From: Marsupella aquatica
Taxonomy: Eukaryota; Plantae; Marchantiophyta
Reading direction: 5' to 3'
Assembly: GCA_973895155.1 (NCBI GenBank)
Contig: OZ316894.1
Span: 17,328,563 to 17,392,562 of the forward strand
DNA length: 64,000 bases
The notes beneath the pieces are model-generated. The model had not been told where the DNA came from and did no database searches. It was given only the letters and a program-made list of their open reading frames with translations. The position numbers and the translations under genes were made by a program. How positions within the stretch are numbered: the first letter of the stretch is position 1; each line of letters begins with the position of its first letter. Below, piece after piece: positions 9,211 to 14,004 of the stretch.

Positions 9211-11055
9211 CTATACCTTGTAAAGCCAACTGCTACAATTTTCAATCATTAATTATATGGTCTAGTTTTATATGGTCCCAAACAAATATAAAACAAGAAG
9301 CAAAGGCCCCATCTTCTTGTACAGCCACCCTTACCATAGTGGTAACTTCATTCACATTGATGAGTATACCTCGGTATTTTGCCAGTACCTACCCAAACAT
9401 GTGTTTGCACTTACTGAGAACACCAACATTATAATAGCATGCACTAATTTTTACCTGTTCCTCGTTCAAATTTGCAGGGCACTAAACATGGGATCAAGGA
9501 AGATCCTCCCTCCAGGATCCATGCAAGAAGTAATATACATACTCAATAGAGTGACATCGCATAGTTTGGTGTAATATTGGTAGGAGTTAAATTGTATTAG
9601 TTTAGTCAACACGGGACTACATACACTAATCAAATTAAAAAATATTCTCCCAATATTTGGGGTAATATTTTACACATCTTTGTGTCATTTAAAGTGGAAA
9701 AAACAATGCAATAAAACATGACACTGGTGTTGATGGCAAGGTGTCGGGCGAGGGGCACACTCATGATGTAGGGCAGCCCCTCAAAGGGCTCTAGGTGGGT
9801 GGGGTAAAGGAGCAAGTGGAGGGAGGGTGAATGACAAAAAGAGGAGACTGAAAATAATGGAAAGGGGGGAAAGGGGGGTTGATGGTTTAAAAGGAAAAGT
9901 AGAGGAAAAAAAGTAAAAGAACATAAGAAAAAAGAACACTCATTTTATTGTATTTTTGTGGTGGTCTTAACCAGTCTTGTGTGCAATGATGTCTTTTACT
10001 CAAGGAGGAAACCTTTTTTAATGAACACAATTCTTGTGGAATGAAGTCTTTTGTGTCAACCAAACTTTGTAGCAAGGTGATAAAGAGATAAATGACTATT
10101 TATTCCTTAACAACTCGATTTCGTTCCGGTTAGGAGTGGATAAGATCGAAAAGACCTAATTAACACAATTTGAGAAGTTTACACCAACATTCTTAGGTTG
10201 GAGAGATTTCTAATGATCTCCTTAACATAAGTGTTTAACCACAAACTCAAGTGGGTAATCCTTAGGATTCACAGTGCAATAATAAAGACTAGAATTAATA
10301 AAGATTGAAACTAGAAAAAGAGTAGATAGGAGGTTTCAAAGCGCAAGGGAATTAAATTTCTGACCATCACCACTCCTTCAATAAGGATTATGGCCTAATT
10401 TAAGATTCAGAAATCAACATTATACTTGCTTTTTGATTTCTCGTAGCAACTCTTCTCCATCTCTTGAATTTAGAAGATATGAACGTAAATCAACCCGAGA
10501 CACTTTTCTGGTCCTGTTGAGGACGGTACTAGGATACTCGAATCGGCTTACTTCTCCTACAATCCTTAAGATTGCTTGGTTGAGTTTTGTGCAAATGTCA
10601 ATTTCCTCTTTGGTGAATCTTCCAAATGTATTGGTCACAAATCTCATTGATCTTCCAATATCATTATAGGCACACTCTAGCATTCATTGAACATTTCACA
10701 ACAACTCAAGGGTTGCTAAACTTCTTCCTTTTACTCAACCATGGTAAAAAGAAGGGAAGAAAGACATAGATTCCTTCAAAGGCAATGAGGAAATCAAAAT
10801 GTATGTTTTCTCTCTTGGTTGACTTTGGGGTTCTCCTCCTTTTGTACTAGAAGTGGAGATTATGAAAAGACATGCCTCTTCAAAAACCAAAGTCTAAAGA
10901 AATATGTAAATAAAAGTGAACTATCCTAGTCAAAAATGGAGTAGAGTCTCCAATGGGTACATCAACAAAATACTGGAGTCTACTTACTCATATACTAGTC
11001 TACATAGCCATTTCTAAGTCTAAACTAATGTGGCTCTAACTCTCTAAATATGACT

Positions 11056-12771
11056 CTATTCTGGTCCTAGCTTTTGGGAAGGAACCTCCTCAGGGTTAGC
11101 CATGGCAAGGGGTTCTGGTCGAAGGAAAACTCCCTGCTGGCCAGTGGTAAAAGGGATGGACGGGTCAGTATCCATGTTCTCCTGATGGGCACTTGGGTCA
11201 TGAGAATAGGTGTAAGAATGGGAGTGGAAGTGTGTACTGGGAGTGGGGAAACCAGGAGGGTTGAGGGGTGATGAGGGGCCAGTGGAATAGACTCCTTCAT
11301 GAGGACTAGGAGAGAAAGATCTGGTAGTAAAGGGAGGAATCTCAGTATCAGCTAATAGCTCCTCAGTAGTCAAGTCACTCATCTCCCTTAAGGCTTCACA
11401 GGTCTTTGAGAGGCCTGTAAGTGCATCATCCACCTTGGTACTCACATCTACCACTAAATGGTTAATCTTGGAGAAAAGGATGGGTGTGGTGTTCTTGGCC
11501 AAATACTCATCATAAATTTGGGCCTTAAGAAGATCCAGAGAAGCTATCTTAGTCAAAGGCTCAATCAGATCCAAAGATTGAGTGATACTGAGTTGGAGAG
11601 TATGCTCAAGCTCATTCTTCTTCTTACTCCTTTCCAACTGTTGTTTGAGTTCAGATACCTTCTTCTTGAGGAACTCATTCTCCTTCTCCAACTTCTTCTT
11701 ATCTGTGGTATCACTCATGGTGGAGATCTTCTCAAGAATCTGCCCTGGTTTCACTCCTAGCTTCTGCGAAATGTCGGTGATGACCTTCTCCATCACAGTG
11801 GTCTTCCTCTTCACCTTCTGGAACGTGTCTGAGATGATCTGGAAATCAGCTAGGGTGTCTTGGGAGGCATGGCCGGGTGCATCCGGACATTCAGCCGGGT
11901 CGACGAAGGCCGGGTCGGAAAAGTCCGGGTCGAGGTTCCGGGCAGCAGACCGGGTCTTTCGAGGATTTGTCTCTGCTGGTTCCTCATCCTCACTGTCATC
12001 AGAGGTGGCCTGGGTGATATCTGGATCTGTCTCTCCATACTTGATGAAGTTGTACTTGGCCAATAGTAATTTTTTCTCCTCTCTAAACAAAACTCCTTCA
12101 AAGCTATATAGATGTACCAGGTAGCAGGAGAGGGGAGTAGGACTCTTGTTGGATAGGTTATGTACCAACTTCCTTATCAAATCAAAGATAAGCTTAGCCC
12201 AGTTGACTTTTCTTTCTCCCTTGTAAGCAGCAACAATGGTAGAGCCAACTCCAACAGTAACTCTTCTTGGCTTCTCAGGGTACAGCAGGGGTAGCAGAAA
12301 GCTGAAGACTCGTCTCAGATCAAGATCCAAACACTTAGAAACATTGAACCCGTCCTTACTGTTGATGGCTCCTTTGAAGTAAGGAAGGATTAGGTTGACA
12401 GCTCTCCCCACTGGACCTTCTCCTTCATCTTCCAATACAAAAGCTCCTGCAATCATCATCTGAGTCCATCGCTCAGGTCGGCCTTTGGAGGTATCCTTAA
12501 ACTCAACCGGACACTCCTTGGATCGGATCTCTCTGATCATATCTTCGCTCTGATAACTCCAAGGTAGCTCCATCAGAGACTCACAGCCCATCCTGAGCAA
12601 AGACTCCCTCAGTTTGACCTTCTCAGCTTCACTGTCCGGAATAGCTGGCCTCAGAATTTTCATGGCAATAGGGACCTCCTTTCTCTTCGATCGTCTCACA
12701 GGGGCTTTAACCGGAGTAGGTGCAGGTGATGTTGAGGTTGAATGCCCCTTAGAGACGCGAGAAGTGGACAT
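11056..12771 (-). CDS. Transposon-associated accessory protein, 571 aa, unknown function (globular domain with LLYPEKP...VNWAKLI...YLVHLY, acidic linker, coiled coil, Pro/Ser-rich tail)
   Basis: ATG-to-stop intronless ORF lying wholly inside the TSD-flanked unit. Coiled-coil-like KKLEKENEFLKKKVSELKQQLE. The layout resembles plant retrotransposon extra ORFs (inference). Confidence 0.8.
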   Translation of the reverse strand: MSTSRVSKGHSTSTSPAPTPVKAPVRRSKRKEVPIAMKILRPAIPDSEAEKVKLRESLLRMGCESLMELPWSYQSEDMIREIRSKECPVEFKDTSKGRPERWTQMMIAGAFVLEDEGEGPVGRAVNLILPYFKGAINSKDGFNVSKCLDLDLRRVFSFLLPLLYPEKPRRVTVGVGSTIVAAYKGERKVNWAKLIFDLIRKLVHNLSNKSPTPLSCYLVHLYSFEGVLFREEKKLLLAKYNFIKYGETDPDITQATSDDSEDEEPAETNPRKTRSAARNLDPDFSDPAFVDPAECPDAPGHASQDTLADFQIISDTFQKVKRKTTVMEKVITDISQKLGVKPGQILEKISTMSDTTDKKKLEKENEFLKKKVSELKQQLERSKKKNELEHTLQLSITQSLDLIEPLTKIASLDLLKAQIYDEYLAKNTTPILFSKINHLVVDVSTKVDDALTGLSKTCEALREMSDLTTEELLADTEIPPFTTRSFSPSPHEGVYSTGPSSPLNPPGFPTPSTHFHSHSYTYSHDPSAHQENMDTDPSIPFTTGQQGVFLRPEPLAMANPEEVPSQKLGPE

Positions 12772-13356
12772 TCCGGTTGGATCCGTCCCTTGCTCTATAG
12801 GACTTATCGAAGCAGAAAATGGATTCTAAATAAATGGCCTGCCTCCTCTTCGGCGAGCTCTACAATGCTGTGACTTCAGAATGGTCAATCTCTTCGGTGT
12901 CGACTAATGGTAGAAACGTCCGGGTCGACCTGGCTATGGCGTTTCTGATCAACTGACAAGAGCTTCTGGAAACGTTGATCAAGATCCCGTCAATAAAAAT
13001 CCAGGTGCATCGAACGTGGGGCGAAGATAGACTCAAACGGTCCTGCAATGTGGATGTCCGGATTGACCTGGCCTTCGTTCTCATCACCGATGTATGCACG
13101 ATCAGAATCTCAAACTTCCTGCCTTCACTCCCAGCGGCGGAGTAGGCATTCCCCTCACAACGAATCAGTCAGTACCCTCATATCCAGGCTCTCATCAAGA
13201 AATTCAAGATTGGTCCTATAATCCGGACCCAAGATCCTCTACCAAAAGGGTAGAGCCTCCTCACTCTACTGCTTTAACAGCCTAATGCGCTCGGGAACTC
13301 AAAACCTACTAAGTTCGGCTTTGAGAGGTGTGAGAGGCCGGATCGACTCTCCTTCC

Positions 13357-13362
13357 TTATAT
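13357..13362 (-). promoter_or_regulatory. Candidate TATA box driving the 571-aa ORF
   Basis: The minus strand reads GGATATAAGGAAGG, followed about 25 nt later by pyrimidine-rich CTCTCACACCTCTC. It lies 300 bp inside the element end and 590 bp upstream of the ATG. Confidence 0.4.
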
Positions 13363-14004
13363 CCGGATTCTGTTGTGGTCGTGCCTGTGTTTGACTTATG
13401 GTTTTAGAAACTTTGGCAATGGACAGCTGTTGTTGAGTAGAGTCTCTGTATAAGCTTTATATCTCATTCCAGGCTTATAACAAAAAGTTCCGGGTCGATC
13501 CTCCTTCTCTAATATCAATCCGGGTTGACCTCAGATCAGCTTGAAAGTCTCATAACACTTCAAAGTAGTCTTCAGGTCCCTCTTCAGCCTTATTTGAGAT
13601 CTTAAACTTAAAAATTCAAAAATTTATGGCTAGTTAACCCTTCCTTCATAAACATCCTTATCTCACAAACTTTCTCATTGACAACACCTTCCCCCACCAT
13701 TTAGGTTGTGACTTCCTTCCTGAGGAGGGGGAGTTGGAGGGGTGGGATTCAAATGGACAATGACTGTGGGGAACTTAGGACATCCATCCGCCTCTTTGAC
13801 TACATTCTATGCCCATTTGCCTTCCCTTGCGCCTTGCCCTTGCCCACCGCGTCCTTCACATGGGGAGAGGGATGAGAGAAGGGAGAGGGGGAGAAGAGGA
13901 AAAAAAGGTTGTATGACCCTACTTGGACACAACAATCTTTGTCCCCTATCTCACATAGATTTGTTCACCTTGCCTCCATGACACTTCTTTTCCTTGATGA
14001 ATTC

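Follow-up and report, generated by a model that had tools for sequence, protein, structure and literature searches.

How does an intact gene of 571 codons come to lie inside a 3.6-kb unit that has the ends of an LTR retrotransposon, and what might it do there? The unit occupies positions 10068..13667 of the window, the whole 64,000-nucleotide stretch analyzed here, starting with TG (10068-69) and finishing with CA (13666-67) for a span of 3600 bases; the ORF and the TATA-like boxes suggest that it is oriented on the minus strand. Its left attachment end (10068..10077, plus strand) is an imperfect inverted repeat, about 10 bp long (TGT..AG..AAGG), of the right attachment end (13656..13667, minus strand), which is likely the start of U3 and whose boundary is fixed by the empty allele described below. 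The sequence AACTT stands on either side (10063..10067 and 13668..13672, plus strand). A preliminary description, made from the sequence alone, had reported these ends and this exact duplication at coordinates that agree with ours, and had read the duplication as the mark of an insertion. By itself, the combination of TG..CA with a 5-bp duplication is no more than chance would give, as the region from 8.7 to 15 kb holds 44 such pairs with the ORF between them, and this number is what speaks for coincidental ends around a host gene. That reading is refuted by an empty allele, the check that the same description had named: in the public run X3, one contig joins the left flank directly to the right flank, and AACTT stands there just once. 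Because of this allele, together with a step in read depth at the exact base 10068 and many different flanks, the insertion is real, the duplication stands as its mark on these grounds, and coincidental ends retain practically no probability.

The unit is one of many. Read depth across its entire length is at least about 35-fold that of a single copy (in X4, 570-1853 in the interior vs 16-43 in single-copy flank bins). At 10065-10069, depth climbs from the single-copy level to thousands in X1, X3, and X4 and from zero upward in X5, with the step at base 10068 in all four runs examined, and it drops again in the bin 13561-13767; other copies share the left terminus to the base (four runs) and the right end to a 207-base bin. 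The left end is present in more copies than the interior, as judged by depth, and its 14 loose-end rows (23 contigs) yielded seven readable, distinct flanks and five unreadable mixtures. Run X1 has no cover at 10020-10054, a kind of hole that proves nothing. A comparison with three X4 contigs of high depth gives 18 differences in 333 bases for the non-coding part and 9 differences in 731 bases for the two mostly coding contigs (Fisher p=0.0002). Among the 12 of 38 listed, all indels relative to the X4 contigs fall outside the ORF, and 5 of the 11 ORF differences listed alter a residue. The unit is a young, multicopy, polymorphic insertion, and its exact ends, its copy number, and the conserved gene inside it bear out the integrase-type insertion that had been proposed.

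TG...CA ends with a 5-bp duplication are the signature of LTR elements, and a copia element in the window likewise has both. In the unit, the ends carry short imperfect inverted repeats, and the duplication, within the 4-6 bp of a solo LTR, is confirmed by the empty site. No gag/pol, PBS, PPT, or second repeat was found at or inside it, and blastn with a word size of 7 detected no second copy of the unit in the window and, in agreement with the preliminary description, no direct repeat between the ends; the neighboring gag and copia frames are both interrupted, also as described there. An Rfam search of 8-16 kb gave no match. We consider it likely that the unit is the solo LTR of a retrotransposon from a bryophyte. 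Paired copies around gag-pol were not seen among contigs that are all short and whose left loose ends are genomic flanks, and a PBS- or PPT-like junction appeared in 0 of the 7 readable flanks, a count that covers the left end; junction contigs with about 30 shared bases would be too short to be placed.

The extra ORFs of Athila, Tat, and Ogre elements are normally internal (PMC6317226, PMC7264820), which, with a dip in depth at 12733-13146 in X1-X3, would fit a deletion product, a full element whose outer ends were joined across an internal extra ORF. However, X4 has no such dip, every bin lies far above single-copy depth, and the lone joint inside the unit, among the 15 of 115 joints listed, is a 73-for-72 base replacement and no deletion. 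A unit lacking two LTRs, a PBS, and a PPT could not, moreover, amplify by reverse transcription, and we regard this origin as very unlikely. The preliminary description had named such a deletion, along with homologous copies lacking these termini, as evidence that would count against it; the joints listed include no deletion within the unit, and the left terminus is common to other copies.

The ORF itself (11056..12771, minus strand) encodes a transposon-type protein of a family that has no name, and it is uninterrupted, as first described; when the unit was shuffled 1000 times, stop-free frames reached 245 codons at most. Word-based searches that took either the protein or alignment A1 as query gave no match, which reflects insensitivity rather than absence, because a full HMMER search finds homologues in 508 clusters at 50% identity (E<=0.001) that share a conserved core. 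The named members of the family come from the liverwort Calypogeia fissa. No Pfam match was obtained for the ORF protein; among 136 aligned members, one matches Transposase_32 (PF20167, E 0.005), none matches the DUF1985, Athila ORF-1, Transposase_28, or PMD profiles, and none reaches a curated cut-off, Transposase_32 included. In the Atlas, which uses language-model features, the nearest named families are Transposase_32 (0.88) and ATHILA (0.87), which serve as leads only. CCHC, protease, or RT motifs occur in 0 of 150 homologues, and an env-like transmembrane helix was not found (best 19-residue hydropathy 0.93; 29 of 31 long homologues below 1.6). No relatives were found in viral contigs or prokaryote genomes, and the one metagenome relative, L001, is a contig of 2678 bases that stops short of the element ends. 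The sizes of homologue contigs, mostly 1.6-5.4 kb, were dropped as a sign of LTR-sized units, being typical of short-read assemblies. A 583-aa ORF at 3843-5594 has no detectable homology to the 571-aa protein.

Four regions are predicted in the protein, all on the minus strand. A conserved basic globular domain (residues 20-262; 11986..12714; pI 9.5, with conserved K/R, among them K96, R123, K139, R153, K167, and R170) with a predicted VANC21/PMD-like fold is followed by an acidic linker, predicted to be disordered, at about residues 250-303 (11863..12024), by predicted long helices or coiled coil likely to serve self-assembly (residues 304-475; 11347..11862), and by a Pro/Ser-rich tail, also predicted to be disordered (residues 476-571; 11059..11346). 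The domain was modeled with high confidence (pLDDT 95, pTM 0.90), and in a structural search of 48,161 chains, the VANC21-DNA complex (9lnk) was the sole chain with Z>=5. Residues 32-245 align to VANC21, a middling match by its Z of 7.8 (below 8), rmsd of 4.2, and 9% identity over 196 of 243 residues; the next chain reached Z 4.0 over 57. Foldseek against the PDB and viral models gave no usable match and did not find VANC21, sequence searches of the PDB returned coiled coils only, and capsid folds are absent among the matches listed for the domain, an absence that does not exclude them. The protein is predicted, from models, to have a VANC/PMD-type DNA-binding fold plus a coiled coil. The suggestion of an anti-silencing factor, made in advance of any model, gains a structural basis, as a function predicted from the fold.

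The sequence around the gene would suit a protein of this type. A TATAAA box, the TATA-like box already noted near one end, lies at 13456..13461 (minus strand), 207 bases from the right end, and is a candidate promoter for the ORF; a second TATA-like element (10989..10995, minus strand), 60 bases past the stop, may be a promoter for genomic RNA. In the CpG-richer non-coding end, CCGGRTYGA, a candidate binding site, recurs six times at dispersed positions within 12920..13528 (five times on the plus strand and once, overlapping, on the minus), and the DNA of the acidic linker holds two more copies and three near-copies. The unit has 8 copies in all, mostly around the promoter end, vs 0.06 expected, for a motif that was picked post hoc. 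For the top degenerate 9-mer of the 5' end, 6 copies were counted, and none of 40 shuffles gave more than 4; a count of at least 6 for some degenerate 9-mer is, however, also reached in 9 of the 71 other 900-bp tiles that make up the window. The motif contains CG/CHG sites, and the observed/expected CpG ratio is 0.76 at the promoter end (0.65 with motifs masked) vs 0.25-0.36 in the ORF, the 3' part, and the flanks. The homologue L001 has a motif of its own, CCGGATCC, present 9 times vs 0.24 expected, and a TATATAA box on either side of its ORF.

These boxes bear on whether the unit has a parent with paired repeats at all. It might be a stand-alone, non-autonomous TG...CA gene cassette, moved in trans as DNA by a DDE integrase or transposase, and would then resemble VANC in being tied to DNA transposition; only single units with differing flanks are seen, the terminal inverted repeats are short and imperfect, and the homologues show no link to gag/pol (0 of 150 with the motifs above). 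However, TG...CA ends with a 5-bp duplication and an imperfect inverted repeat of about 10 bp are what LTRs have, the copia element in the window included, and the TATA-like boxes that flank the L001 ORF fit a gene in U3 followed by a genomic promoter. We know of no plant DNA transposon with this combination of ends and duplication, and such a cassette seems unlikely.

The protein may be compared with VANC of the Arabidopsis VANDAL (Mutator-like) elements. The two are alike in predicted core fold and in a coiled coil, predicted here, through which self-association of VANC21 is itself a prediction (PMC13547354). VANC elements repeat short, family-specific motifs in their non-coding DNA, and the unit may do likewise; the motifs of VANC21 and VANC6 differ (PMC5735166), as do the candidate motifs of the unit and L001. 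They differ in sequence (9% identity and no DUF1985 match), in the arrangement of the motifs, which are dispersed here and in tandem arrays in VANC systems, and in host, a bryophyte here, whereas VANC is termed dicot-specific in PMC13547354. The carriers also differ, VANC belonging to a Mutator-type element and the 571-aa protein to a TG...CA unit with a 5-bp duplication and no transposase. VANDAL/Mutator DNA transposons make a 9-bp duplication.

Other known systems offer partial parallels. Non-chromovirus Ty3/gypsy elements have extra ORFs, namely Athila ORF-1 (PF03078), Retand Transposase_28 (PF04195), Ogre PMD (PF10536), and Transposase_32 (PF20167), as PMC6317226 and PMC7264820 set out. 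Like the 571-aa protein, these are of a retrotransposon accessory type with a globular domain and a coiled coil (Atlas 0.87-0.88), but they are described as internal, whereas the 571-aa ORF lies inside the TG...CA unit and has no HMM match at family thresholds. The grass elements Retrosat2, RIRE3, RIRE8, and FRetro3 have LTRs above 3 kb, solo LTRs in abundance (in rice, 429 vs 162 complete elements), and an extra ORF0 of unknown role; ORF0 is described as lying upstream of gag-pol and was searched apart from the LTR (PMC3485330). PMC11963269 makes no mention of VANC, silencing, or solo. Protein genes in a terminal repeat are best known from retroviruses, as MMTV sag and HIV nef, the latter merely overlapping the LTR. 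The position is alike, but these are animal retroviruses with unrelated proteins and immune-directed roles.

Whether the LTR-borne gene is a sequence-specific factor against silencing of its own element is, in our judgment, evenly balanced. The protein may instead bind the LTR as a plain activator of transcription, as a factor of the pre-integration complex or one that targets integration, or as a repressor by which the element limits itself, which we think rather unlikely, although a common fold does not establish function, and nuclear, retrovirus-accessory-like functions have been proposed for extra ORFs (PMC7264820). The plant mobile domain proteins MAIN/MAIL are reported to resemble VANC DUF1985 in structure and to act through short DNA motifs, and the PMD-A members are retrotransposon-encoded (bioRxiv 10.1101/2024.09.27.615353). 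MAIN/MAIL are host genes without a sequence match to the 571-aa protein, and they have been described both in TE silencing and in opposing Polycomb (PMC13547354 and the same preprint). Against these other roles, the sole solved structural match is an anti-silencing factor, the design of predicted domain, coiled coil, and dispersed candidate family-specific motifs with CG/CHG sites near the promoter is that of VANC, and the promoter end has the raised CpG ratio given above.

If the gene does act against silencing, the following course may be envisaged. A full element was inserted, presumably by integrase, with the 5-bp duplication that we observe, and recombination between its two long LTRs would have left a single LTR. 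As the gene lies wholly inside the unit, in what is probably U3, and has a candidate promoter there, it would survive solo-LTR formation. By analogy with VANC21, the basic domain would grip CCGGRTYGA and the coiled coil would multimerize the protein over the motif cluster; the bound protein might then lower DNA methylation or Polycomb marks and so keep the promoter of the LTR active, both in cis and, for full-length copies, in trans. An intact gene inside the leftover repeat would therefore mean that each solo copy keeps a gene likely to shield its own family from silencing. A wider and more tentative proposal is that bryophyte LTR retrotransposons transferred to their LTRs an anti-silencing gene with sequence specificity, together with the promoter and the motifs that its product binds. 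Solo-LTR recombination, by which the host mainly deletes such elements, would then leave intact, trans-acting counter-silencing cassettes, protein and CCGG-core motif would co-evolve per family across hundreds of lineages, and the VANC fold would have long served retrotransposons instead of having arisen in dicots; we think this wider proposal less likely than not.

What the extra ORFs of plant LTR retrotransposons do is a decades-old question, and their functions are stated to be unknown (PMC7264820). With a whole gene in a likely LTR, a fold prediction for its product, a candidate target of 9 bases, and an empty allele found in nature, a direct test of binding and demethylation is feasible. 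Anti-silencing by proteins has so far been demonstrated in DNA transposons; if the anti-silencing reading is true, it would also occur in retrotransposons and in land plants that diverged early, the 500 or more diverse protein-motif pairs would form a pool of sequence-specific epigenome tools, and solo LTRs would have to be seen as active genes instead of debris.

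The 3.6-kb unit is a real, polymorphic, multicopy insertion. It starts with TG at 10068, closes with CA at 13667 and carries an exact AACTT duplication on both sides, as the preliminary description had reported, and its two ends are imperfect inverted repeats of each other over a short stretch. They share no direct repeat, and the window holds no second copy. The caution that a 5-bp match might arise by chance was apt in that the duplication alone is weak evidence: in the range 8.7-15 kb the ORF is bracketed by 44 TG..CA pairs that come with a matching 5-mer. An empty allele, however, confirms the insertion. 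In the public sequencing run X3, a contig runs from the left flank into the right flank at 13674 with one AACTT, which fixes both ends of the unit, and the X3 flank depth of 60.6 splits into 28.7 from the filled allele and about 32 from the empty allele.

Seven public runs contain part of the unit, and four of the seven contain more than half of its words (two studies); one run may be what the window was derived from. Summed contig depth in run X4 was 570-1853 in all bins inside the unit versus 16-43 in single-copy flank bins (8800-15000), and the step at the unit edges recurs in X1-X3 over the same range. With three unit-internal X4 contigs at depth 661-788 and flank contigs at 16-17, we put the family at some 40 copies or more; depth is not copy number, and the figure is an approximate lower bound. 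The left-end step was placed at 10065-10069 in X1, X3, X4 and X5 (10020-10150 examined), and loose ends before 10058-10071 account for at least 14 rows (23 contigs) among the 19 of 25 rows listed, including seven distinct readable flanks and five unreadable mixtures. Depth over the first 50 bases (10068-10120) is about 2-5 times that of the interior, and this left end may be common to further subfamilies or short derivatives. Further high-depth repeats lie in the flanks at 8800-9213, 9628-9834 and 14182-14595, the last being a 71-bp tandem array.

TG...CA ends, a 5-bp duplication and an imperfect inverted repeat of about 10 bp form the signature of LTR integrases. A control showing the LTR signature in the window is the Ty1/copia element at 53758-59803, with pol broken into three frames and intact ends (321-bp LTRs 97.5% identical, ACTAG duplication, Met-type PBS, PPT). 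The unit lacks gag/pol, as previously noted, and also a PBS or internal repeat, and thus cannot copy itself by reverse transcription; despite this, depth shows it amplified end to end. Because of the signature, the missing gag/pol and PBS, and the end-to-end amplification, we consider the unit quite probably a solo LTR. A deletion product is very improbable, with no deletion joint inside the unit among the 15 of 115 joints listed. None of the seven readable left flanks contains PBS/PPT-like sequence, although contigs break about 30 bases into a repeat, which would hide most LTR-internal junctions. That the unit is a stand-alone cassette appears improbable. For a solo LTR of this length there is context in LTRs of up to about 5 kb in non-chromovirus elements (PMC6317226) and in the many solo copies of the long LTRs of rice Retrosat2 (PMC3485330).

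The uninterrupted 571-aa ORF (11056-12771, minus strand) is intact, and the TATA-like box described near one end is a TATAAA at 13456-13461 on the same strand. By comparison, the longest frame in 1000 shuffles of the unit was 245 codons. The ORF is better preserved than the non-coding part: relative to three majority X4 contigs it differs at 9/731 positions versus 18/333 (p=0.0002), and all 12 listed of 38 indels fall outside it. Among the 40 of 406 sites listed, 6 of 11 ORF differences are silent (p=0.03 versus 25%), which is weak alone. The protein matched no Pfam family and nothing in a word-based search; a full HMMER search retrieved 508 homologue clusters at E<=0.001 (222 at 1e-10), mostly spanning residues 30-270 at 25-47% identity, with W71, F132, F158, P161, P165, W191 and Y222 among the strongly conserved positions. 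An organism was named for 4 of 29 representatives examined, in every case the leafy liverwort Calypogeia fissa; together with the Physcomitrium relative of the neighbouring dehydrogenase gene, this makes the host a bryophyte, likely a liverwort. CCHC, protease and RT motifs were absent from all 150 homologues searched.

In the AlphaFold2 model a globular domain is followed by a linker that is acidic and disordered, a region of long helices (304-475) and finally a disordered tail. Modelled alone, the domain (pLDDT 95, pTM 0.90) had one match at Z>=5 among 48,161 chains, the DNA-bound structure (9lnk) of VANC21, an anti-silencing protein of Arabidopsis VANDAL transposons. While a Z under 8 can reflect a common arrangement, this match (Z 7.8, rmsd 4.2, 196/243 residues, 9% identity) spans most of the domain, clear of the runner-up (Z 4.0 over 57 residues), and it recurs with the whole-protein model; Foldseek did not find it. 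Atlas neighbours of the domain are unnamed streptophyte clusters (0.90-0.93), Transposase_32 (0.88) and ATHILA (0.87), and 1 of 136 family members matched Transposase_32 (E 0.005). Profile and carrier both exclude the protein from the VANC family, and what the models predict is a VANC-like fold with a coiled coil. PMC13547354 and bioRxiv 2024.09.27.615353 report a likeness of VANC to the plant mobile domain (PMD) of MAIN/MAIL and a predicted multimerisation of VANC and the Athila domain via coiled coils. By its model, the 571-aa protein is predicted to resemble a VANC/PMD-type factor in action.

A candidate target motif, CCGGRTYGA, occurs eight times in the unit (seven on the plus strand, one overlapping on the minus), six times in the non-coding promoter end and twice in the linker, versus once in the remaining 60 kb. 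The best degenerate 9-mer of the promoter end has six copies versus at most four in 40 shuffles, free motif choice allowed for, though six copies are likewise found in 9 of 71 control tiles from the window, many of these in tandem repeats. CpG observed/expected is 0.76 in the promoter end (0.65 with motifs masked) versus 0.25-0.36 in the ORF, 3' part and flanks. A metagenome contig (L001:1-2678), which stops short of the element ends, encodes an intact 553-aa homologue (35% identity). It lacks CCGGRTYGA and CpG depletion (o/e 1.11) and carries nine copies of CCGGATCC versus 0.24 expected. Its identical TATATAA boxes, 215 bases before the ORF and 130 bases after, would fit a U3 gene followed by the genomic promoter. 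According to PMC5735166, VANC21 and VANC6 bind distinct short motifs that have accumulated in the non-coding DNA of their respective families, and they cause loss of methylation. The candidate motifs at our two loci offer a suggestive parallel.

The window also contains an intact 583-aa ORF (3843-5594, plus strand), antisense to and upstream of a broken gag (about 163-2130, minus strand) and preceded by a 30-bp tandem repeat (3117-3204). Its layout of domain, acidic linker and coiled coil is like that of the 571-aa protein; no homology between the two was detectable. Atlas neighbours (Transposase_28 at 0.84-0.85) are a lead only, and the ORF may be another accessory gene belonging to the same broad clan. 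The ends of its element were not found in the window. Directly after the ORF lies an imperfect 2.2-kb palindrome (5664-7823; 66.6% across 2293 columns, with blocks of the arms at 73-95%), which may be a foldback element or a pair of inverted terminal repeats from a single family. A 1.2-kb foldback element (62662-63904) and related inverted arms of 100 bp, separated by 26 kb (26023-26125 and 52598-52700), are likely small non-autonomous DNA transposons. Host genes lie at 18381-22579 (CCCH zinc-finger, 4.7 kb from the insertion, presumably CPSF30-like) and 27219-29732 (2-oxoglutarate dehydrogenase E1; best named full-length relative Physcomitrium, 85%).

Full-text searches of the openly accessible literature returned no description of a complete protein gene within the LTR of a plant retrotransposon, nor of bryophyte elements that encode a VANC-fold protein. 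Review PMC7264820 assigns extra ORFs to the internal region, terming their function unknown, and bioRxiv 2026.08.24.746577 covers anti-silencing for DNA transposons only. The globular domain is basic (pI 9.5, conserved K/R), and no transmembrane helix is present in the protein. That the same LTR gene serves some other nuclear role is a minority possibility, set against the VANC21 match and the candidate motifs. That the unit is a solo LTR with an LTR-borne gene for a motif-binding anti-silencing factor seems to us evenly poised between true and false. The ORF promoter in the LTR would drive the gene, the protein would bind the candidate motif in its own LTR, and the bound protein would counteract silencing.
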